Positions 5,709-17,887 of a stretch of DNA of 64,000 nucleotides are shown piece by piece. The translations under genes were made by a program, and so were the position numbers. Origin of the DNA: Verrucomicrobiota bacterium (GTDB lineage Bacteria; Verrucomicrobiota; Verrucomicrobiia; Limisphaerales; JADLHS01). The stretch lies in the NCBI GenBank assembly GCA_031384405.1, contig JANNAO010000406.1, positions 9,759 through 73,758 of the forward strand, written 5' to 3'. The stretch's first letter is position 1. Every line of letters begins with the position of its first letter. The notes beneath the pieces are model-generated. The model was not told where the DNA came from. It was given only the letters and a program-made list of their open reading frames with translations, and did no database searches.

Positions 5709-5709
<1 letters not shown>
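5137..5709 (-). CDS. rsmD: 16S rRNA (guanine966-N2)-methyltransferase RsmD
   Basis: Start trimmed to the ATG at 5709..5707 (MRISGGHAGGRILKVPKG...). It has the SAM-binding motif LELFGGSGALSLESLSRGA and the DPPY motif (ILADPPYG). The ATG shares one nucleotide with the sdhB stop codon (TGATG). Confidence 0.85.
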
Positions 5710-6471
<762 letters not shown>

Positions 6472-6482
<11 letters not shown>

Positions 6483-7116
6483 GGCTAAATTTTTTTGCTT
6501 TTGCGCCGGTTGATTTCGTCGGCTGCTTCATCAACGTGTGAAAGCCGATTTCGCGCTTGGGCGATTTCTTTTCGCTCATCAGAGCGCGGATGGCGTCGAA
6601 CACGGCGCGGAACTGTTGGTCGTATTTTCCCTCCAGTGCTGCCAGTTTCCGCGAGAGGTCGGCGTGCGTTGCCAACAACTGCCGCAATTGCACGAACGTC
6701 CGCATGATGGCGAGGTTTGTCTGGATGGAGCGGGGACTGTTCAGCACGCCGGATAGCATCGCCACACCCTGTTCTGTGAAAGCGTAGGGGCGGTATTTTA
6801 TATTTTTCCCTGATTCCAAGGTCACAATTTGTGATCTTGGAATTTGCGTTGTTTTTGAGGTTTTTCTGCTGATTTCGCCATCCAAGGTCACAATTTGTGA
6901 CCTTGAAATCATATCCGCTTCCTCCTTGGAAACCTGAAACATGAAGTCCTCGGGAAATCGTTCCAAGTTGCGCTTCACCGCTTGATTCAAAACCCTAGTC
7001 TCCACGCCGTAGAGTTCCGCTAAGTCACGGTCGAGCATCACCTTCTCGCCGCGCAACAACAGAATCTTCCGCTCAATGCGAGCGGCTGGAATCAGTGCAA
7101 TGGTTTGTTTGCTCAT
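6472..7116 (-). CDS. ORF6N-domain DNA-binding protein (KilA-N/Rha-related), inserted between sdhA and sdhB
   Basis: The N-terminus [48 protein letters not shown] and the [20 protein letters not shown] segment are the ORF6N family signature. The C-terminus is a coiled coil. The RSQIVTL segment is duplicated. By eye the gene is more AT-rich than the flanking sdh genes. Confidence 0.85.
6816..6840. repeat. palindrome copy 1 (ccaaggtcacaatttgtgatcttgg) inside the ORF6N CDS
   Basis: Near-perfect inverted repeat. On the minus strand it encodes PRSQIVTLE. Confidence 0.9.
6882..6905. repeat. palindrome copy 2 (ccaaggtcacaatttgtgaccttg) inside the ORF6N CDS
   Basis: Lies 66 nt (22 codons, in frame) from copy 1. 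On the minus strand it encodes SRSQIVTLD. Confidence 0.9.
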
Positions 7117-7128
7117 GCGGCGTGAATT

Positions 7129-7153
7129 TCAAGGTCACAAATTGTGACCTTGG
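7129..7153. promoter_or_regulatory. palindrome copy 3 (tcaaggtcacaaattgtgaccttgg), candidate operator or hairpin upstream of the ORF6N gene
   Basis: Lies 13-37 nt upstream of the ORF6N ATG (7116) and 9 nt downstream of the sdhA stop. It has the same 21-bp core as copies 1 and 2 but inverted (central aaatt versus aattt). Confidence 0.6.
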
Positions 7154-7161
7154 ATTCCAAA

Positions 7162-9123
7162 TCATTTATAAGAGCGTGTGCTCATGTGGACTTCTTCATA
7201 CACGAGCGGCTCTTTGTTCAGGATCGGCGCTTTGTCCGGTGCTCCGGCATATTCCCAACCAGCGACATAAGCGAACGCATCATCGCGACGCTTCACATCG
7301 CCTGGATTCACGAGGCCCTGCTTGGTTTCGGGATCGTCGGGCGTGTACTGATATTCTTCGCGGAAATGGCCACCGCAACTCTCCTCGCGATGGAGTGCGT
7401 CGCGGCACATGAGTTCGCCGAGTTCGATGAAGTCCGCCACGCGACCGGCCTGTTCGAACGATTGATTCCAATCCGCCGCCTCGCCGGACACCATCACGTT
7501 CTTCGCATACTCCTCGCGCAATTCGCCGATGAGTTTGATTCCCTTTTCCAGCCCGGCCTTGGTACGCGCCATGCCGCAATGATCCCACATCAGTTTGCCA
7601 AGTTCCTTGTGGAAGCTCGCAGGCGTGCGCCTGCCTTGGTTGCCGAGCAATTGTTTGGTCAATGATTGAACATTTTCCTCGGCCTGTTTGAACGCCGCGT
7701 TGTCGGTGTTCGGACGCTTGTCAGGCTTCTGTGACGCGAGATAACCGCTGATCGTCGCTGGCAAAACAAAATAGCCGTCACTCAAGCCCTGCATCAGCGC
7801 GCTCGCGCCGAGGCGGTTCGCGCCGTGATCGGAGAAGTTCGCCTCGCCCAGCACGAATAGGCCGGGGACGTTGCTCATCAAATTGTAGTCCACCCACAGC
7901 CCGCCCATCGTGTAATGCACGGCGGGATAAATCCGCATCGGCGTTTTGTAGGCGTCTTCGTTCGTGATCTCTTGATACATCGCGAACAAGTTGCCGTAAC
8001 GCTCACGCACCTTGCTTTCGCCAAGCCGACCGATGGCGGCGGAAAAATCCAGATAAACGCCGAGTCCCGTTTCGCCAACGCCGCGACCCTCATCGCAAAC
8101 CGTCTTGGCCGCGCGGCTCGCGATGTCGCGGGGCGCGAGGTTGCCGAACGCGGAATACATCCGCTCCAGATAATAATCGCGATCCGCTTCGGGAATGTCC
8201 TGCGGCGGCTTCTTGCAATCCTCCTTCTTCTTCGGCGTCCACACGCGACCGTCGTTGCGAAGTGATTCGCTCATCAGCGTCAGCTTGGACTGATAATCGC
8301 CGCTGACCGGGATGCACGTCGGATGAATCTGCGTGTAGCACGGATTGCCGAAGCACGCGCCGCGTTTGTAAGCGCGCCAGCTCGCGGTGACGTTCGCCTG
8401 CCGCGCGTAAGTGGAGAGGTTATAGACATTGCCGTAACCACCGGTCGCCAGCACCACGGCATCCGCGCTGTGCTTGGTGATTTCACCGGTCTGGAGATTG
8501 CGGACGATGATGCCCTTCGCATGACCATCCACGACGACAAGATCGAGCATCTCGGAGTGCGTGTAAGATTTCACTGCGCCCGCGCCGATCATCTTGTTCA
8601 ACGCCGAATACGCACCGAGCAACAACTGCTGCCCCGTCTGCCCGCGCGCGTAGAACGTCCGCGAAACTTGCGCGCCGCCGAACGAGCGGTTGTCGAGCAA
8701 GCCGCCGTATTCGCGGGCGAACGGCACACCCTGCGCCGCACACTGGTCAATGATGTTGACCGAAACTTCAGCGAGGCGATGCACATTGGCTTCGCGGGCG
8801 CGGAAGTCGCCGCCTTTGATCGTGTCGTAAAATAAACGGTGAACCGAGTCGCCGTCGTTCTGATAATTCTTGGCAGCGTTGATACCGCCCTGCGCCGCGA
8901 CCGAGTGCGCGCGCCGGGGAGAATCATGGAACACGAAGTTATGAACTTCGTAACCCAGTTCCGCAAGCGTGGCGGAAGCGGATGATCCCGCGAGTCCGGC
9001 GCCGACGATGATGACCTTGTATTTCCGCTTGTTCGCCGGGTTGATGAGCTTGGTGTTGAACTTGTAGCTCTCCCACTTCGAAGCGAGCGGGCCGGACGGG
9101 ATGTTGGAATTCAGCGTGGCCAT
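7162..9123 (-). CDS. sdhA: succinate dehydrogenase/fumarate reductase flavoprotein subunit
   Basis: Start trimmed to the ATG at 9123 (MATLNSNIP...), 1 nt after the sdhC stop. It has the FAD dinucleotide fold [14 protein letters not shown], the covalent-FAD His region [15 protein letters not shown], and [10 protein letters not shown]. Confidence 0.95.
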
Positions 9124-9124
9124 G

Positions 9125-9901
9125 TTAGTGCGTCTCCTTTGCGGTCGGCGTAGCGGGCGCAGCAGATTCAACGATGGAATGTTTCACCTTCTCGGCGTAA
9201 TCCGCGCCGACGGCTCGTAGATAAATCGTCGCGGGAATCGCTGCGTAACCAATGAAGATCGCGATGCTTGCTCCTTTGGCGAACAACTGGATGCGCGGCC
9301 ACCAGACGTGATCGCGCAAGCCGAAGGATTGAAACATCGCTGCCAGCCCGTGACCGAGATGGATGAACAACAACCCTTGCGCGACGATGTAAAACGCCGC
9401 GACCCACCAGACTTGAAAGCCGAGAATCATGATGCCGTAAACGTCGCGAACCTCTTCGCCGTGGATCACGGTCTTGAGCTTGGAGAAATCGCCAACGCCG
9501 TTGATGCCCGGCAGCAGCGCAGTGAAATGTGCCAAGTGATAAACAATGAAAGCCGCAATGACCAAACCGCTGACGAGCATGTAGCGCGATTGCCAAGTTG
9601 AACCATACGGCTCGCTGTCGTGGTAGGCGACGGGACGAGCCGCGCGATTGGCCACGGCCAGTTGAATCGCCGACCAGATGTGCAAGCCGACGATGGCGAG
9701 CAATCCGATGCGCGAGCCCCAGACCATCGCGGGTTTGCTCTGGAGGAAGTGGGCGTAATTGTTGATGAGTTCGGGCGGGCCGAAGACTTGCAAGTTGCCG
9801 ACCAAGTGGCCGATGACGAACAAGAACAGCAGCGCGCCTGTCCCGGCCATGATGTATTTTTTGCCGAGAGACGAATTAAGGATGCCTGACACAATGCTCA
9901 T
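9125..9901 (-). CDS. sdhC: succinate dehydrogenase cytochrome b subunit (b558-type, single membrane anchor)
   Basis: Start trimmed to the ATG at 9901 ([37 protein letters not shown]). It has five predicted TM helices with conserved His residues. Its position at the head of sdhC-A-(ORF6N)-B fits the type-B enzyme layout. Confidence 0.8.
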
Positions 9902-10120: not shown

Positions 10121-11269
10121 ATGAATCGGGTCGCCATCCAACCCAACTTGCTGCGCTGGGCTTGCGAGCGCGCAGGGTTTGATCGCGCTGATTTAGAACA
10201 CAAGTTTCCACATCTGGCCGCTTGGGAAAACCTCACCGAACAGCCGACGCTAAAGCAACTGGAAGCGTTCGCGAAAGCGACCTACACACCAGTTGGTTAT
10301 CTTTTTCTTCCCGAACCGCCAGTCGAAAAAATCCCAATTCCAGATTTCCGCGCTCCCGGCAATGAGCGCATTGGGCATCCATCTCCCGATTTGCTAGACA
10401 CAATCTATGTCTGCCAGCAACGGCAGGAGTGGTTTCGGAATTACGCGCGCTCCATGGGTGAACGACCACTGACGTTTGTGGGTTCGGCTCGCGTAAAGGA
10501 TGATGTTGTCTCAGCAGCAGCGCGCATCCGAACTGCACTTGGTTTTGACATGGATGAGCGCCGCCAGATTCCGACGTGGACGGATGCGTTGCGTCACTTC
10601 ATCGAACAGGCCGACGGCCTTGGAATTCTCGTGATGTGCAACGGAGTGGTGCATAACAACAACTATCGGCATCTGGACACAAAGGAGTTTCGCGGTTTTG
10701 CCATGGCGGATGATCTAGCGCCGCTGGTGTTCATTAACGGCGCGGACACGAAGGCAGCGCAAATGTTCACGCTGGCTCACGAGTTGGCGCACATCTGGTT
10801 GGGGCAATCTGCCGTCTCTGATTCCCAACCCGTCACGATACCGGTTGAGCAAGTGGAGCGTTGGTGCAACGAAGTTGCCGCTGAATTGCTCGTCCCGATT
10901 GAGTTGATGCGACGAGAATACAAGGATGACGCAACATTGGCAGAAGAAGTCAGCCGACTGGCCCGACGGTTCAAGGTCAGCACGCTTGTCATCTTACGCC
11001 GGATTCTTGACGTGGGTGGATTGAGCCAGCAGGAGTTTTGGGAAGCGTATCATGCAGAGGTGGACCGGCTGCGCGCGATTCCTCGCGGTTCTGGCGGTAA
11101 CTTTTATCTGACGCAAGCCGCCCGGGTCAGCAAACGCTTCGCGGCGGCACTGGTTACAAGCACACTAGAGGGGCAAACTCGCTACAACGATGCCTTCCGG
11201 ATGCTTGGGTTCTCGAAGCTTGCGACGTTCAAAGAATTGGGGCGCAGTCTGGGGGTGGGTGTCGCATGA
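10121..11269 (+). CDS. XRE-like HTH + ImmA/IrrE (COG2856) zinc metallopeptidase
   Basis: 382 aa with an N-terminal HTH-like region and an HExxH motif in FTLAHELAHIWLGQS. The overall pattern matches ImmA/IrrE-type antirepressor proteases. Confidence 0.8.
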   Translation: MNRVAIQPNLLRWACERAGFDRADLEHKFPHLAAWENLTEQPTLKQLEAFAKATYTPVGYLFLPEPPVEKIPIPDFRAPGNERIGHPSPDLLDTIYVCQQRQEWFRNYARSMGERPLTFVGSARVKDDVVSAAARIRTALGFDMDERRQIPTWTDALRHFIEQADGLGILVMCNGVVHNNNYRHLDTKEFRGFAMADDLAPLVFINGADTKAAQMFTLAHELAHIWLGQSAVSDSQPVTIPVEQVERWCNEVAAELLVPIELMRREYKDDATLAEEVSRLARRFKVSTLVILRRILDVGGLSQQEFWEAYHAEVDRLRAIPRGSGGNFYLTQAARVSKRFAAALVTSTLEGQTRYNDAFRMLGFSKLATFKELGRSLGVGVA

Positions 11270-11754
11270 GTTACCTTCTGGACTCCGACGTTTTTATTCA
11301 GGCCAAAAACCTCCATTACGGTTTGGATTTTTGCCCAGCCTTCTGGGATTGGCTGGTCGCTTCGAATGAGGCGGGGTTGGTTTTCAGCACAGAAAAGGTT
11401 GGAGATGAGATCGCGGCAGGCGCTGATGAACTTGCAGGGTGGGCTGCAAACCGAGGCGACGGTTTCTTTCTCAAACCAGACGCTGCCATCTTGCCCGCAC
11501 TTGCCACAGTGAGCAGTTGGGCAACCGGACAAAACTATGAACCCGCAGCAGTGAACACATTCTTGCAAGTGGCCGATTTTTATCTCGTGGCTCATGCGCT
11601 GGCTCATGGTCATGAGGTGGTGACACATGAGGTGGCGGCAGCTTCGACGAAAAAGATCAAGATTCCCAACGCTTGCATTGGAGTCGGCGTCAAGTGCGTA
11701 AGCCCTTATGAAATGTTGCGCCGTGAAAAGGCGCGGTTTGTCCTCGGTGCGTAG
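11266..11754 (+). CDS. DUF4411 family PIN-like nuclease (putative toxin partner)
   Basis: 162 aa. MSYLLDSDVFIQAKNLHYGLDFCPAFWDWL and the C-terminal KIKIPNACIGVGVKC are characteristic of DUF4411. It has an ATGA overlap (11266..11269) with the ImmA/IrrE gene. Confidence 0.75.
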   Translation: MSYLLDSDVFIQAKNLHYGLDFCPAFWDWLVASNEAGLVFSTEKVGDEIAAGADELAGWAANRGDGFFLKPDAAILPALATVSSWATGQNYEPAAVNTFLQVADFYLVAHALAHGHEVVTHEVAAASTKKIKIPNACIGVGVKCVSPYEMLRREKARFVLGA

Positions 11755-11773: not shown

Positions 11774-14413
11774 TCACTTCGCCGCCGCCGGTTTTGATTG
11801 TGGGCCTCCAACCCAATCTTGAAATCCTTTCCAACCAGATTTTGCGTAAACCATATCTGGCGCGGTGGGAATAAAATCTTCCGGTCTCTTCGGCAGATTG
11901 GAGAATTTGTTTACACAGTAATCCTTCCAAGAGCGTTGTCCGCCTCCCTGCGGACGTAAGCGCCAAAGTTCCAGCTTGTGAACCCATGCGCGAGATTGCT
12001 CGAAAGGCCACCAATCTTGCTTCTTTTCGTAGCCAAGAAAATCGGGCCAACTTACCCAATCGGGATAGTATTCATGTGGTCGAGAATGGATGATTTCAGG
12101 CCGCTTCCCTTTGCCTAGAAGCTTTCCAACACTATACGGCGTCCATTCGTTCGGACTCTTAAGGCCGAGCTTGCGGACGAAGGCACGAGCTTCTTCGTAG
12201 GTTAGATACGTTTTGCCGCCCGACCACTTTACTCCAGTGCCAAAGAATTCTCCCCATGTAGTCCAGCCCAGATTTCGATACGTCTCGTTAGGGCTGCTAG
12301 GATGATCTGCCAGCACTGGCGGCAGGTCTGGACGATCACCTCTGCGCCAGGCTCGCCATTGTTTCTGCGTTTTTAAGCCAAGTCGCTGCACAAGTGCCTG
12401 AGCTTCTGCATAACTTGTCGGCGCAAGTTGAGCCAGCTTACCCCATGCTTGGAGGCGGATAGATTGAACAAACTTCTCGGATTCAATTTTCACCGGCAGG
12501 ACTTCGGCAAAGTCAAAGTTCACGATTCGTTTTCCGTGCAGTGGTTTGCCGTGAGAAATGGAACGGAATTCTTCGATGATGCGTTCGTCGTTCGCTGCAA
12601 GCGCGCGAAGAACGAACATGACAAACTTGAAAGCGGAACTCTTTACGGCTTCGGAAAGACTGTCACCGTCCTTCACGACCATCGGAACGATGATGTGACC
12701 AAGCGTTTTATCTTCGGCGCGACGCAACGCGCGCCCTGCGGCCTGCACCACGTCAATCGTGCTGCCCTTGGGATCGCAGAACAGGACGCAATCAATACGT
12801 GGCACGTCCACACCTTCGGTCAGACATCGCGCGTTGGTCACAAGCGACGGCGTGGCAGCGCGAAACGCCAACAGTTCGCGATCACGTGCGCCAGTGGTCA
12901 TCTTCCCGGAAACATGGAACGAAGCGACCTGTGGCTGATTGGGGAACGCTTGATTGAACTGATCTGACAGCGTGCGAAAAGCTTTCGCCCGATCAATGCT
13001 GCTGTGAAACGAAACCGCGTGCCGGACGCCATGTTCTTGCACAGCCCTTCGCAATGCGATGAGGCTGGCAAAGGCTGCGGCAGCCACGTCGCTCCACTTA
13101 CCTTTGTCTGGCCGGACGAACGTGTTGGTTTCAACCAGCCGCCGAATTTCAGATTCCTTCACGCCTATGGTGAGCACTTGATAGTCGCTGAGAATCGGCG
13201 GCTGCGTCTCAATCGCCTCCTTGAACGTCAATAACTCGATGGTCTCGCCAAAGAGTTCCGGGTCATCCATCGAAACGATTTCATCCGAAGTGCCGGCGTA
13301 ACGCCGCTCTGTCGCCGTCATGAACAGGCGACGGCGAATGGGCAGGTTCTCGTCGTAGAGCAAATGCGCGAAGCCGCTGGATTTTCGGCCAGCCGTGCGG
13401 TGCGCTTCATCAAAGACACCGAAGTCGAAAGTGATTCCTGCCTCGCGAGCGGCGACCGCGAGCGGAGTTCCGCTTTGGTAGGTTGTGAAAATTACGCGCA
13501 GCGGCGATTTCATCGCGGCAAGATGCTCGCGAATCTTCTTCGGGTTAGTCTCGCAAGGAACGCCAAGGTCGTGAACGTGAACCAGCAACTCATCGCGTTC
13601 CGGTTTGCCAGCCGATTCATCGCTGCAAACACAAAGCCAGTCGGGGCGTACGCCATCAGCCACGGCCTCCGCGAGCCAAGTCGTGAGAGTCTGATTGATG
13701 AGTGCCAAACTCGGCACGGCGACGACAATGTGTTTTGCACCCAGCCGCCGAGCGAGCCAGTAAGCGGTGAGTGTTTTCCCGGACGCGCACGGGCTGATCA
13801 ACTTGCCTCGCGTCTGGTCTGGGTCGTTGAAGAAGGTCACGCCTTTTTCAAGTGCGCGCATTTGATGCGGCCAAGGTGTTGTTGGTGTGAGAACGCCCGG
13901 AGCTAGTTCCCGTCCTGAGCGCGCTGCCGCGAAGATGTCAGCCGACAGATGCTGCCAAGTTTCGGAAGTGCGGAAACCGATGCGAGAATTCCCTTCAAGC
14001 AAGTCAGTGACGCGGTCGGTGGTCGTGCAAATCAGGCCGAACGAAATGCCGCGACAAATCACGAACGCAAGGGACGTGAAAGTAGAAAGCTCACTGTGTG
14101 TCAGGGAGCTTTTGGAATCGGAACGATACTTCGCTTGAACCGCCCAAAACTCGCCCGTGAATGTTTTGGCAACAAGGTCAATCCCTTCGTCCGGGCCGGG
14201 GAGATTTAATTCCCTGTGAACTTCATCTGGAACTTCCGCGAGCAACCAGACTGTTTCGAGCAGGCTACGATAGGTTGGATGCGTTCGCAGAAGAGCTGCC
14301 ACGAGCAACTCGAAAGCATCACCCTTTTCCTTCCGCTCTCCGGGAAGAAGATTCATCGCAGCCGTGAATTCCGGCCACGCGTTTATGCCGTCGAAGGATT
14401 TTGCACTGGCCAC
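11774..14413 (-). CDS. Mrr-like PD-(D/E)xK nuclease + SF2 (DEAH) helicase with three C-terminal W-rich repeats
   Basis: 879 aa. N-terminal nuclease motifs are GDAFELLVAALL, DEGIDLVAK and AVQAKYR. Helicase motifs are I SPCASGKTLTAY, II FDEAHR, III FMTATE and VI QAAGRALRR. The last 214 aa (11777..12418) form three repeats of about 60 aa: (Y/F)E(E/Q)(A/S)xA(F/L/W)V..LGLK...W.....(R)P..(L/I)P..P...Y...GW..W..F(F/L)G. Confidence 0.8.
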   Translation of the reverse strand: MASAKSFDGINAWPEFTAAMNLLPGERKEKGDAFELLVAALLRTHPTYRSLLETVWLLAEVPDEVHRELNLPGPDEGIDLVAKTFTGEFWAVQAKYRSDSKSSLTHSELSTFTSLAFVICRGISFGLICTTTDRVTDLLEGNSRIGFRTSETWQHLSADIFAAARSGRELAPGVLTPTTPWPHQMRALEKGVTFFNDPDQTRGKLISPCASGKTLTAYWLARRLGAKHIVVAVPSLALINQTLTTWLAEAVADGVRPDWLCVCSDESAGKPERDELLVHVHDLGVPCETNPKKIREHLAAMKSPLRVIFTTYQSGTPLAVAAREAGITFDFGVFDEAHRTAGRKSSGFAHLLYDENLPIRRRLFMTATERRYAGTSDEIVSMDDPELFGETIELLTFKEAIETQPPILSDYQVLTIGVKESEIRRLVETNTFVRPDKGKWSDVAAAAFASLIALRRAVQEHGVRHAVSFHSSIDRAKAFRTLSDQFNQAFPNQPQVASFHVSGKMTTGARDRELLAFRAATPSLVTNARCLTEGVDVPRIDCVLFCDPKGSTIDVVQAAGRALRRAEDKTLGHIIVPMVVKDGDSLSEAVKSSAFKFVMFVLRALAANDERIIEEFRSISHGKPLHGKRIVNFDFAEVLPVKIESEKFVQSIRLQAWGKLAQLAPTSYAEAQALVQRLGLKTQKQWRAWRRGDRPDLPPVLADHPSSPNETYRNLGWTTWGEFFGTGVKWSGGKTYLTYEEARAFVRKLGLKSPNEWTPYSVGKLLGKGKRPEIIHSRPHEYYPDWVSWPDFLGYEKKQDWWPFEQSRAWVHKLELWRLRPQGGGQRSWKDYCVNKFSNLPKRPEDFIPTAPDMVYAKSGWKGFQDWVGGPQSKPAAAK

Positions 14414-14876: not shown

Positions 14877-16370
14877 TTATTTCGCAGCCGATGTCTTGCT
14901 AGCGATCTGGGCGGCGTCGGTGATGCCGAAGCGTTTGAGGATGCGATCCGTGGCTTCGCGCTCGGCATCGCCAGCGGCGAGTACGATGCGTTGGAGAGAT
15001 TCGTTGGGCACGAAGTCTATGATGTGAAAATCATCCTTGGGTTGCTTCAACGCGGCTTGCAATTCAGTCAAGCTAGTCACGCGCTGGCCGTTGACCTGGT
15101 TCACCACGAATGAACGAAACTCCTGATAGCCGATGTTGAATTTGTCCGGCAATACCTGCGAGAGAATCACGAGGGAGGGCTTGGCTTTCGTGGCTTCGTC
15201 GCTGCGATAATGATTCAGGCGGAATGGCGCGGTGCGTTCCCACTCGTTGCCCCAGCGTTGCAGATAGGGCGTCGTCAACGGTTGAAACACGAGTCCGCCC
15301 ACGATGAGATAATCCGGCGGTTGATCCCGAACCGCGATGGGAACGAGAGCGTTCTGGAAATCATACCCCGGCAAACGATACGTCACGTCGAGCGGTTTGC
15401 CGTCGCGCCAGAGTTTCATCTTCACGTCGTCACCCGCCCACTTGCCGCGCGTGGAGAGATTTTCCAGCGTGAGCGAACCAAACTCCGGATCGGTGTAATC
15501 GCCCTGCATGTCCACGTCGAATCCATCAATCTGCAAAATAATGTCGCGCGGCTTGAGGACGGAATCGCCGCCATCGAGACGTTCGGGGACGTTGATCACG
15601 AGTACGCCGCGCGGTTCGCCGGGAAGTTTGAGTTGCGCGAGCGAGGCGGTGTTTTCAGCGGGTTGCCAATAGAAATGGAAGTAGCCGAGCGCGCGTTGCT
15701 TGCCGGATTTGCGCGCTTCGAGAACCGAGCGGATGAACGACGCGGTGATGATGTTGCACGCGCGTCCGATCTGCGATGCGGTGATGCCCGCGATGCGCGA
15801 ATCCGTGACGACCGGCTCGCCGGACCCTGCGTCGCTGATCTCTGAATCCAATTCCATCTGCACATGGTTGATGGCGCTGCCGTCGCTTACATGAACGGAG
15901 TATTGGGTGAACTCGGCCTGGCGGTTTTCCAATTTGCCTTCGCGCCAGCGGACGATCTCCAACTCATCGCCTTCGCCGGGCGGTTTACCGGTCAAGTCGG
16001 CGGGACGAAGATCGCTCCAGAATGTCGCGTCGTCGGTGGTGAGCAGCGCGAGGTTGGCGTGATAATCAATCCACACGACGCTGGCGGTGGTCCATTTGCC
16101 GCGTCCGTTCTTTTGGAAACGCACGAGCGTCTGGTCGGACAGGTCTTGAGCTGTGGCGAGAATCTGGCGGTCTCCGACGACAAGTCCGGATTTCGCAGCG
16201 CGTTCGTTGCGGCGATTCCACGGTTGATAATAGTCGTAGGATTTTCGCGCGACTTCGATCTTTACGACGGATTTCTCCCAGGCGAATGAGGGCTTAGTGG
16301 AAGCACTTTCCGCCAATGCGGACAAGGGCGCGATCAACACCAGCACGGTAAGGAGGAAACAGTTTTTCAT
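14877..16370 (-). CDS. Deg/HtrA-type (S1C) protease homolog with PDZ region; catalytic His and Asp substituted (probable pseudoprotease)
   Basis: 497 aa with a signal peptide, paralogous along its length to the upstream ORF. Aligned catalytic positions read ATAQDL (versus TNAHVV), HANLALL (versus DSDLAIL) and AGSGEP (versus GNSGGP). ATGA overlap with the upstream gene. Confidence 0.75.
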   Translation of the reverse strand: MKNCFLLTVLVLIAPLSALAESASTKPSFAWEKSVVKIEVARKSYDYYQPWNRRNERAAKSGLVVGDRQILATAQDLSDQTLVRFQKNGRGKWTTASVVWIDYHANLALLTTDDATFWSDLRPADLTGKPPGEGDELEIVRWREGKLENRQAEFTQYSVHVSDGSAINHVQMELDSEISDAGSGEPVVTDSRIAGITASQIGRACNIITASFIRSVLEARKSGKQRALGYFHFYWQPAENTASLAQLKLPGEPRGVLVINVPERLDGGDSVLKPRDIILQIDGFDVDMQGDYTDPEFGSLTLENLSTRGKWAGDDVKMKLWRDGKPLDVTYRLPGYDFQNALVPIAVRDQPPDYLIVGGLVFQPLTTPYLQRWGNEWERTAPFRLNHYRSDEATKAKPSLVILSQVLPDKFNIGYQEFRSFVVNQVNGQRVTSLTELQAALKQPKDDFHIIDFVPNESLQRIVLAAGDAEREATDRILKRFGITDAAQIASKTSAAK

Positions 16371-17887
16371 AGGTGACGGTCTTTGGGGATGCCGTAGGTC
16401 TTGAGGATTTTGTCGTTGGCGCGAACCGCTTCCGCGTGGTCGAGAGTTTCAAACGCGCCGAGCTTGCCGAATTGGATCACGTCGTGCGCGTTCGTGCTGG
16501 TGGAGAATGCGCGGATGACGTCGGCAATCTTCTCGATGCGGATGCCGTTGATGCGATCCACCAACACACGTCCGCGAGTGATGAAGTTGGCGTTGACCGC
16601 ATCGGTCAAGACGCTGCTCAGGACGACGGGTTCGTCGCGGGCGAGTTCGGGTTCTTCGCGATTGCGGAAAAATAATTCGTAATTGAGTTCACCCGTTGAC
16701 GAATCAGAACCCTCACGCCCGGCGTCGCGCAAATAATCCAACGACAACGGCGTGAACACCAGCCCGCCAAAAACAAAATAGCGCGGCTGCACGTCGTATT
16801 GATTGCCCTCGCGCTGATCGTCCACGGCGGCTTCCACGGTCACTGTCACATCCTGCGCCTTGCCGTCACGCCAGAGTTGAACGGGAACGCTGTCGCCGCT
16901 CTGACCGAGTTGAAAACCCATCGCACAGAACACGCGATTGCCCAGGAACAGGATCGTCGCATCGCTCGCCACGGGAAACTCACCGATCTTCAGAATCACA
17001 TCGTCTGCGCGGAGGACATTATTTGTGCTGGTCCGCGAGCGGATGCGATCCACCCGCGCGCCGAGATTGTTGTCGGGCAATTTCAGCCGAGCGCGATACG
17101 CGGGATTTTGCAGCGATGTGATGCCGGCACCAGCCAGCGGCACGCCATCGTAACGTTTGTCTTCGATGTCTTTGAGGAAGCGATTGATGACTTGTGGCGG
17201 AATGAAAAAGCCCGCGCCCTCTAACGATTTGATGCCTTGAAACGCCACGCCCACCACGCGGTCGTCTTGCAGCACAGGCCCGCCGCTGTTGCCGGGATTG
17301 ATCGCCGCATCCGTCTGCACGGAGAGTAAACGGCGATTGCCGATGTGCGAGTAAGGGCTGAGTTCGATCCTCGAAACGACGCCGCGCGTGTAGGAGATTT
17401 CTTCGCCGCCCGCCGGGTAACCGTACGTGATGACTGCGGAACGGACTTTGGGTAATTCACCGAATTCAAGAGCGGGCAGATCATTGAAAAAACTTTCATC
17501 CTCGACGGTGAGAATGGCGAGATCGGAATCGTGCGCGATGTATTCGACCTGAGCAAGGTAGGGTTTCGCGTCCTGATACTTCCGCACGATGATCTGTCGC
17601 GCCCAACCGACGACATGGGCGTTGGTCATGATGCGTTTGCCCCGGATGACGAAGCCTGAGCCGCCGGAGCGTTGCACGGCATCAAACCGCCACGGCGCAG
17701 ACCAATCGGGCGACTGGCGGAACGTTTGGATCTGGATGACTGAACGTTCGGGTTCGATGGCGAGACAAGTCCCCGCGACTAGAAACGCGAGGCAGGCAGA
17801 GATTAATTTCAGGAACACGCCGGGCAAAGTGAAAGTTTGGCGCGAAATGGTCAAGGGATTATCCGGGCTATTGCGCTTGGAATACAT
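16367..17887 (-). CDS. Deg/HtrA-type S1C serine protease with PDZ region (intact triad)
   Basis: 506 aa with an N-terminal TM/signal segment. The triad is intact: His in MTNAHVV, Asp in HDSDLAILTV, Ser in NPGNSGGPV. Confidence 0.85.
   Translation of the reverse strand: MYSKRNSPDNPLTISRQTFTLPGVFLKLISACLAFLVAGTCLAIEPERSVIQIQTFRQSPDWSAPWRFDAVQRSGGSGFVIRGKRIMTNAHVVGWARQIIVRKYQDAKPYLAQVEYIAHDSDLAILTVEDESFFNDLPALEFGELPKVRSAVITYGYPAGGEEISYTRGVVSRIELSPYSHIGNRRLLSVQTDAAINPGNSGGPVLQDDRVVGVAFQGIKSLEGAGFFIPPQVINRFLKDIEDKRYDGVPLAGAGITSLQNPAYRARLKLPDNNLGARVDRIRSRTSTNNVLRADDVILKIGEFPVASDATILFLGNRVFCAMGFQLGQSGDSVPVQLWRDGKAQDVTVTVEAAVDDQREGNQYDVQPRYFVFGGLVFTPLSLDYLRDAGREGSDSSTGELNYELFFRNREEPELARDEPVVLSSVLTDAVNANFITRGRVLVDRINGIRIEKIADVIRAFSTSTNAHDVIQFGKLGAFETLDHAEAVRANDKILKTYGIPKDRHL

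Follow-up and report, generated by a model that had tools for sequence, protein, structure and literature searches.

A Type ISP-like nuclease-motor protein that very probably carries a basic INT_rpt array in place of the methyltransferase and target recognition domain

Type ISP restriction enzymes hydrolyze ATP in a site-dependent manner, translocate unidirectionally along DNA, and cleave when two convergent enzymes collide (PMC3553950, PMC7049714). Their coupler, gamma-class adenine methyltransferase, and target recognition domain (TRD) provide site recognition, stimulation of the ATPase, and self protection (PMC4666363, PMC7049714). Few translocating restriction enzymes are understood as well as this group, which includes LlaGI and LlaBIII and relies on the fused methyltransferase-TRD for loading, activation, and self-protection. 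Here we describe a related gene in a stretch of 64,000 nucleotides (hereafter, the window) from a Verrucomicrobiota bacterium (GenBank assembly GCA_031384405.1, contig JANNAO010000406.1, positions 9,759 to 73,758). The gene occupies positions 11774..14413 of the reverse strand, from a GTG start at 14413 to a stop codon at 11774-11776, and encodes an 879-aa protein that consists of an Mrr nuclease, a superfamily 2 (SF2) DEAH translocase, and three INT_rpt units. We hold with high confidence that the protein is a Type ISP-like nuclease-motor that has no methyltransferase-TRD and has a basic INT_rpt array instead. As for its function, on balance we lean toward the explanation that it is a stand-alone ATP-dependent nuclease-translocase, engaged most probably in the methyltransferase-independent restriction of invading DNA.

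A single polypeptide combining an Mrr nuclease, with its PD-(D/E)xK motifs, and an SF2 motor, with a complete motif set, had been read from the sequence in an initial annotation, and we confirmed the open reading frame (ORF) and all seven motifs, each of which is found exactly once in the protein. Those of the nuclease are GDAFELL (aa 31-37), DEGIDLV (aa 75-81), and QAKYR (aa 93-97), and those of the motor are SPCASGKT (aa 207-214, with the Walker A GKT at aa 212-214), DEAH (aa 335-338), TAT (aa 366-368), and the motif VI sequence QAAGRALR (aa 557-564). A Pfam scan detected Mrr_cat_2 (1.2e-14, aa 44-137), ResIII (1.8e-10), and Helicase_C (3.1e-10). When PDB sequences were searched with phmmer, aa 27-626 aligned to residues 30-662 of LlaBIII (4xqk; 2.5e-56), LlaGI (5ffj) was matched at 3.5e-42, and Type ISP enzymes were the sole PDB sequences matched at E<=0.01. 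LlaBIII is likewise the top Foldseek match in the PDB (1.6e-36, TMq 0.60) for an AlphaFold2 model of the protein, which was built with 66 homologs and has a mean predicted local distance difference test score (pLDDT) of 85.4 and a predicted template modeling score (pTM) of 0.75; chromatin remodelers, RadD, XPB, HsdR, and SauUSI follow at approximately 1e-10 to 1e-12. Judged by these comparisons, aa 27-626 are clearly homologous to the Mrr nuclease and SF2 translocase of LlaBIII and LlaGI. We delimit a predicted Mrr-family PD-(D/E)xK nuclease at aa 27-165 (13919..14335, reverse strand), based on Mrr_cat_2, the alignment to the LlaBIII nuclease, and invariant residues, and a predicted SF2 helicase-like ATPase/translocase at aa 181-626 (12536..13873, reverse strand), based on ResIII and Helicase_C, the LlaBIII and LlaGI matches, and invariant motifs.

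The restriction-like character that the initial annotation had ascribed to the protein is consistent with LlaBIII and LlaGI being its nearest characterized relatives and with a match at 5.9e-86 to the PADLOC-DB v2 model REase_MTase_IIG, which covers solely profile positions 19-644 of 1646. None of the defense protein models in PADLOC-DB v2 is matched over its full length; models of restriction-modification fusions are matched over their N-terminal 40%, and helicase motifs give weak matches to PbeA, Cas3, and mREase_IV.

The catalytic residues can be compared directly with those of LlaGI, in which motifs I (E38), II (D74-x-G-x-D78), and III (Q92-x-K94) of the nuclease have been probed by mutagenesis; the D74A, D78A, and K94A variants lose cleavage and retain translocation (PMC2790908). 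In the protein described here, motif I is F34-E35, motif II is D75-x-G77-x-D79, and motif III is Q93-x-K95, such that E35, D75, D79, Q93, and K95 are the equivalents of LlaGI E38, D74, D78, Q92, and K94. The nuclease residues E35, D75, G77, D79, Q93, and K95 are invariant in the 66 homologs, as are the motor residues K213, D335, E336, H338, T366-T368, Q557, G560, and R561. Because this invariance extends to homologs with identity as low as 42%, both the nuclease and the ATPase of the protein are very probably catalytically active. We also note that an identical public protein (P0001) has its called start at M20 and a length of 860 aa. The 19 residues upstream of M20 (14357-14413, reverse strand) are kept in relatives, with W13 present in at least 90% of 66 sequences, and for this reason the database start is probably too short and the GTG at 14413 is the likelier start.

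Past the motor, the protein departs from the Type ISP plan. Neither Pfam nor NCBIfam detected a methyltransferase domain in the protein, and the Foldseek match to LlaBIII does not extend past the motor. In addition, no modified-base reader (SRA, EVE/PUA, YTH, the Mrr winged helix, DUF3427, or iEndoIII) was found by Pfam, NCBIfam, PADLOC, or a fold search with the C-terminus. The window encodes no N6-adenine or N4-cytosine DNA methyltransferase, the only ORF with a (D/N/S)PP(Y/F/W/H) motif being the rRNA methylase RsmD; for cytosine-5 methyltransferases, the window was covered by a crude check for PCQ/ENV patterns alone. All ORFs lying up to 6 kb from the gene at 80 loci were then clustered, which revealed neither a conserved neighbor nor stable synteny of the orthologs; the largest cluster, a Fic/DOC protein, is present at 6 of the 80. 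The 133 immediate neighbors match 80 Pfam families, and there is no methyltransferase in the 25 of these families that were listed. These observations agree with the earlier proposal that the protein is a standalone effector.

One explanation for the missing half is that the gene supplies only the restriction subunit of a restriction-modification system that is split, with its methyltransferase and specificity partner being encoded elsewhere in the genome. The nuclease-motor is indeed homologous to enzymes that depend on a methyltransferase-TRD, and unlinked partners could be missed by a 64-kb window and by the contigs of metagenome-assembled genomes (MAGs). We nevertheless consider a split system very unlikely, given the lack of a conserved neighbor and of DNA methyltransferase motifs just described and given that the C-terminal array is constant. 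Moreover, this array sits at the exact position of the methyltransferase-TRD, which suggests that the latter was replaced rather than separated.

The motor is joined to the array by a long helix in the AlphaFold2 model (aa 645-663; 12425..12481, reverse strand), in which F648 and W657 are invariant among the 66 homologs. The initial annotation had discerned three repeats in aa 666-879 (nt 11777..12418), and their reality is well supported by statistics. In pairwise local alignments compared with 1000 shuffles, z was 13.2 for repeats 1 and 2, 8.1 for repeats 2 and 3, and 4.6 for repeats 1 and 3, and the observed score was reached by 0, 0, and 1 of the 1000 shuffles, respectively. A hidden Markov model (HMM) of the family repeat, built from 343 units of other members outside the nine closest homologs, matches the protein three times: unit 1 at aa 667-729 (12227..12415, reverse strand; per-domain E = 8.3e-23), which forms four short helices in the model; unit 2 at aa 738-796 (12026..12202, reverse strand; 4.4e-19), the most variable unit among close relatives; and unit 3 at aa 802-870 (11804..12010, reverse strand; 7.9e-20), which is atypical in having an insertion of 7-8 aa (WRLRPQGGGQRS). 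The starts of units 1 and 2 are separated by 71 aa, the length of a canonical unit in the family, and the consensus of the approximately 71-aa unit is xxFxxARxFVRxLxLxxxxEWxxYCxGxxPxxxxxPxDIPxxPxxxYxxxGWxGxGDWLGTG. In a model of the isolated C-terminus (pLDDT 88.8), the unit comprises a pair of helices that is followed by a proline-rich loop and then by two further helices, both very short. The C-terminus has an isoelectric point of 9.7, and the net charge of units across the family averages +4.8, being positive in 94% of them.

A Pfam scan of aa 666-879, which the initial annotation had recommended for naming the repeat, returned no family directly at E<=1, and the name was obtained instead through relatives. 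Relatives with more units exceed the threshold of the Pfam family INT_rpt, the "Integrase repeat unit" (PF14882), with P0072 scoring 6e-14 and P0111 scoring 1e-15; another INT_rpt protein, P0299, scores 5e-29. When units were scanned singly, PF14882 was the top family for 15 of 29. On the strength of these profile matches we identify the repeat as INT_rpt, a named but uncharacterized family rather than a well-characterized housekeeping domain. Weak summed Pfam matches of relatives to Exonuc_X-T_C, I-HmuI_NUMOD-like, DUF7336, and HTH_50 cover the first helix-turn-helix of each unit alone, and we regard them as pattern resemblance rather than homology.

The array evolves faster than the catalytic core, both in the number of units and in their sequence. 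Among close relatives with 82-96% identity in the nuclease and motor, identity falls to 62-71% in repeat 1 and to 51-59% in repeat 2. At 75% overall identity, relatives have six repeats versus three here. Such fast change would fit a specificity or interaction module, and relaxed constraint is an alternative. Repeat 3, with 77-93% identity in the same close relatives, is highly conserved within the three-repeat subclade, and this better conservation relative to repeats 1 and 2 (51-71%) suggests that it may have a distinct role, for example, as a cap or in a specific contact.

What the array might bind can be approached through the other proteins in which it occurs. We surveyed architectures by an exhaustive profile search of representatives, as a word-indexed search gave proteins of <=125 aa alone. 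The exhaustive search with the INT_rpt profile retrieved 7695 clusters at 50% identity. Of the 149 best-scoring clusters that were analyzed, 43 have the Mrr-helicase module, and the others are repeat-only proteins or other fusions. Elsewhere, INT_rpt is fused to Integrase_2 proteins (e.g., P0294), which explains the name "Integrase repeat unit"; to other SF2 helicases, some of them with Methyltransf_8 at the C-terminus; and to SAP domains, the DUF4379 treble-clef zinc ribbon, and a DUF559/MTES_1575 nuclease region. Almost all of these fusion partners are enzymes or domains that act on DNA. The initial annotation had linked the repeat to integrase-like and helicase proteins of some phages or giant viruses, and this link proved sound: in addition to the Integrase_2 fusions, the repeat was found by tblastn in just five jumbo phages, and in a viral structure library A0A292GIR6 matches the repeat at 1.7e-5, and Klosneuvirus, Bodo saltans virus, and Terrestrivirus SF2 helicases give marginal matches (4e-3 to 7e-2). 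Three metagenomic proteins (P0344, P0386, and P0348) have six to seven N-terminal INT_rpt units on a different SF2 helicase; according to Pfam, P0344 and P0386 end in a Methyltransf_8 (Rrp8-like) domain, and P0348 is markedly rich in N, K, and I. A fourth protein, P0355, combines SAP domains with INT_rpt units. All four may come from giant viruses or eukaryote-associated organisms.

A second source of evidence is the nuclease-motor itself. The best match in plasmids is a protein encoded by a plasmid of Rhodococcus qingshengii (WP_064689746.1), in which Mrr_cat_2 and an SF2 helicase are followed by eight HA domains (PF03457, 8e-113). DNA binding has been reported for HA domains (Mills et al. 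2013, as cited in PMC12191111). The gene for the plasmid protein is located at 6022-9627 of NZ_AP023173.1 (L087), near a gene for a NACHT-domain protein. One nuclease-motor chassis is thus found with three C-terminal types, namely a methyltransferase-TRD, HA arrays, and INT_rpt arrays, and no other indirect evidence argues as strongly as this set of alternative C-terminal halves for the INT_rpt array being the half that engages DNA. A common ancestry of the INT_rpt and HA repeats was considered and rejected (hhalign probability 0.1, E = 0.54). By analogy with the HA proteins, and in view of the basic charge of the units, their fusion to DNA enzymes, and their placement where the methyltransferase-TRD would be, it is plausible that INT_rpt units bind nucleic acid.

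The array could instead bind a protein partner, RNA, or another ligand, rather than DNA, and so recruit or regulate the motor-nuclease. Such a role would be compatible with the existence of repeat-only proteins, with the absence of a structural or sequence match between the repeat and a known DNA-binding fold, and with the conserved positions being mostly aromatic residues or proline, which may be just the core of a small domain. We think it quite unlikely, however, since the units are consistently basic, their fusion partners are, almost without exception, enzymes that act on DNA or domains that bind it (e.g., SAP), and in homologs the same position is held by DNA-recognition modules, that is, the methyltransferase-TRD or HA domains.

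If the protein restricts invading DNA, as we favor, then the INT_rpt array would dock the enzyme on DNA, either nonspecifically or through a feature other than a methylatable site. ATP hydrolysis would power translocation along duplex DNA, and the Mrr domain would nick or cut upon blocked translocation or upon the collision of two molecules, as in LlaGI and LlaBIII. The role of the enzyme would then be Type IV-like or sequence-independent restriction of phage, plasmid, or other invading DNA. Activation and the sparing of self DNA might be achieved by recognition of modified bases, by recognition of DNA ends or structures, or by control through expression or a partner. A broader proposal, which we advance only tentatively and consider doubtful, is that INT_rpt and HA arrays are modular DNA-reading modules that repeatedly replaced the methyltransferase-TRD of Type ISP enzymes and thereby made a widespread, unrecognized class of single-gene, methyltransferase-independent, translocating restriction enzymes, in which the number and sequence of the repeats would set the target DNA (e.g., modified, hypermodified, or non-self).

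Several observations weigh against the restriction explanation. The Type ISP ATPase is normally activated by target binding through the methyltransferase-TRD (PMC7049714), which the motor described here is without, and we identified no other means by which self DNA would be spared in the absence of a cognate methylase. With respect to the repeat, the whole protein scores 10.9 bits (E = 0.59) against PF14882 and misses the gathering threshold of 26.5 bits, because it has just three divergent units and the summed score is too low. Foldseek of the repeat region against the PDB gave no match at E<=1e-3, and the repeat profile gave chance matches alone among PDB sequences, for example, to a designed protein. 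Many of the neighboring genes are ordinary housekeeping genes, and the association with defense genes that is described below is qualitative and no more than suggestive, as neighbors were counted without a background comparison. The family is also rare in plasmid and viral collections. Finally, in the full-text literature we found no study of the nuclease-motor family or of INT_rpt function; the names in use are "DEAD/DEAH box helicase family protein" and "integrase repeat-containing protein" (NCBI), together with PF14882.

The distribution of the family bears on whether it serves the cell as a core enzyme. A full-length search in which 8000 candidates were scored retrieved 3158 clusters at 90% identity (E<=1e-5); lengths range from 755 to 1525 aa in the 120 matches listed, and the number of repeats ranges from 1 to 12 across the family by a simple pattern count. 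Among 185,579 species genomes, with one genome per species, there are at least 575 relatives. They occur in Verrucomicrobiota, Planctomycetota, Lentisphaerae, Melainabacteria, Bacteroidota, Nitrospirae, Desulfobacterota, Campylobacterota, and Saccharibacteria, and also in MAG or single-cell assemblies labeled Pelagibacteraceae and SAR86. The family is mostly one of the Planctomycetes-Verrucomicrobia-Chlamydiae (PVC) group and other environmental bacteria and is scattered patchily over many phyla, with the proviso that the taxon labels are those of MAG bins and that some look wrong. Four contigs (L007, L031, L028, and L050) are labeled Bifidobacteriaceae, Klebsiella, or Akkermansia muciniphila, and the close relatives of the protein that they carry group with those of environmental Verrucomicrobiota; these contigs are likely mis-binned or mislabeled.

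This pattern is difficult to reconcile with a helicase-nuclease for chromosomal DNA repair, recombination, or replication restart, in which the repeats would target damaged or branched DNA. Such a function would accord with the RadD and XPB structures matched after LlaBIII at approximately 1e-11, with weak NCBIfam matches to RadD and Hef, with the many housekeeping neighbors, and with the lack of an apparent mechanism for telling self from non-self. The RadD and XPB matches, however, reflect no more than the general resemblance among SF2 enzymes, and the match to Type ISP enzymes is stronger by 25-45 orders of magnitude. In addition to the patchy distribution, the absence of conserved synteny and the unrelated contexts of close homologs speak against a repair function, and the quick change in repeat number and the variability of repeat 2 are atypical of core repair genes. 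We accordingly regard a repair role as unlikely.

The genomic contexts of the family are varied. The commonest families among the immediate neighbors are Fic (5), phage integrases of the tyrosine type (3), DUF4143/AAA_14, DUF559, and PIN, and among those seen once are BrxL, an SLFN-type helicase, RmuC, a 4TM effector of the cyclic oligonucleotide-based antiphage signaling system (CBASS), and YhcG. When the neighbors were searched with PADLOC, SoFic (6), several PDC candidates, and BrxL were detected. Even homologs with 81-85% identity sit in unrelated contexts: one that is 85% identical (L003) lies beside a helix-turn-helix plus Peptidase_M78 protein, a serine recombinase, and an ATPase resembling those of type IV secretion systems, a second is found among metabolic genes, and a third adjoins DUF433-PIN modules. 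From such neighborhoods the gene would appear to be a stand-alone, horizontally mobile accessory gene that is often but not always near defense, toxin-antitoxin, or mobile genes.

A mobile lifestyle raises the possibility that the protein is cargo of a mobile element or serves the element itself in integration, transfer, replication, or conflict between elements, with the repeats being shared with the element's integrase so that both recognize the same DNA. The repeat does occur in, and is named after, Integrase_2 proteins such as P0294, the 85% identical homolog adjoins a recombinase and a secretion-type ATPase, tyrosine integrases account for 3 of the 133 immediate neighbors, and contexts differ between close homologs. 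Yet no integrase or transfer gene is consistently linked across the 80 loci, and at the locus in the window we found no flanking direct repeats, no tRNA, and no compositional shift relative to the flanks. The full architecture is present in none of 72,556 plasmids and in only approximately 8 of 2.9 million viral contigs (IMG/VR). Service to a mobile element is in our estimation improbable, and carriage by such an element would also be compatible with the defense role that we favor.

The same collections led us to reject two possible origins of the gene. The tblastn matches in 537 plasmids are limited to the N-terminal 65-77% of the protein, so that only this part, and not the whole, is matched in plasmids; the N-terminal module is matched in 221 Streptomyces and 27 Rhodococcus plasmids, and in the 537-record set the annotation reads type ISP enzyme or DEAD/DEAH helicase. 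A phage origin was rejected likewise, the motor being matched in just 2 phage records, in addition to the five jumbo phages with the repeat and the few IMG/VR contigs mentioned above.

In the window, the gene is placed between succinate dehydrogenase genes and two PDZ proteases. It is convergent with an overlapping gene pair, with 19 nt between the stop codons. The first gene of the pair (10121-11269, forward strand) encodes a 382-aa IrrE/ImmA-like Peptidase_M78 protein that also matches the PADLOC models capP and RmrA, and the second (11266-11754, forward strand), which overlaps the first by ATGA, encodes a 162-aa DUF4411 (PIN-like) protein. Going by these domains, the pair looks like a toxin-antitoxin or defense pair. 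A Peptidase_M78 gene is beside the helicase gene at L003 too, in a different arrangement. On the sdh side, a gene encoding an ORF6N domain (6472-7116, reverse strand) lies between those for the succinate dehydrogenase Fe-S subunit (5709-6482) and flavoprotein (7162-9171). ORF6N is a KilA-N/anti-repressor-like domain typical of phages, and its gene has the look of an insertion into the sdh cluster. On the other side, two overlapping neighbors (14877-16370 and 16367-17887, both on the reverse strand) each encode a C-terminal PDZ_3 domain. A trypsin-like protease domain is detectable in the product of 16367-17887 alone, and the gene at 14877-16370 may be a degenerate paralog.

Should the protein be a defense enzyme, it would add a methylase-free class to ATP-dependent restriction, one in which current defense finders see a partial restriction-modification match alone. 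It would also assign a first function to INT_rpt, which is present in approximately 7700 protein clusters, and set up a parallel with HA domains that can be tested, and it would raise the mechanistic question of how such a motor is loaded and self DNA is spared. Should it not be a defense enzyme, it would still be an abundant and unstudied nuclease-motor of poorly cultured bacteria. In either case, what we describe is a large, uncharacterized, and testable family rather than a categorically new system.

Comparison with the Type ISP enzymes LlaBIII (4xqk) and LlaGI (5ffj) makes plain both the kinship and the divergence. Like them, the protein is a single chain with an N-terminal Mrr nuclease followed by an SF2 translocase of double-stranded DNA, and the residues critical for cleavage and ATP hydrolysis are conserved. 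Unlike them, it has neither the gamma-class adenine methyltransferase nor the TRD, and most of the coupler is probably absent as well; the sequence alignment stops at LlaBIII residue 662. The approximately 235 aa that follow the motor are instead made up of one helix (aa 645-663) and the three INT_rpt units. With the methyltransferase and TRD absent, methylation and DNA recognition in the Type ISP manner are impossible, and because these two defining features fail, the protein is not a member of Type ISP. It plausibly operates as the N-terminal half of a Type ISP enzyme does. The HA-domain protein of the R. qingshengii plasmid is similar in a different way, with 35% identity over aa 3-619 and with tandem, small, helical, tryptophan-containing repeats of approximately 65-71 aa in the place of the methyltransferase-TRD. 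The repeat family differs, however, and there is no PF03457 match in the protein described here. With other INT_rpt (PF14882) proteins it shares the same basic repeat of approximately 71 aa, whereas their partners are different (Integrase_2, other SF2 helicases, SAP, DUF559-type nucleases, or the zinc ribbon) or lacking altogether.

Among the enzymes that restrict modified DNA, Escherichia coli Mrr (Type IV) has a catalytic domain of the same family, with the signature DxGxD...QxK, but Mrr works without an ATPase motor and has an N-terminal winged-helix reader that the protein described here lacks. The protein resembles Type IV enzymes in being a nuclease without a cognate methyltransferase in the gene, the window, or conserved neighbors; because it has no recognized modified-base reader, it is not assignable to the known Type IV enzymes. 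SauUSI (ATP-dependent Type IV, 7clg) is likewise a single chain without a methyltransferase, in which a nuclease and an SF2 motor are joined to a module at the C-terminus that reads DNA. Its motor is just distantly related (Foldseek 5.3e-10), and it differs further in having a nuclease of the phospholipase D (PLD) type and a DUF3427/SRA-like reader, which recognizes 5-methylcytosine and 5-hydroxymethylcytosine, and in having no INT_rpt. In terms of how a stand-alone translocating restriction enzyme might operate, SauUSI nonetheless offers the best functional analogy for the nuclease-motor described here.

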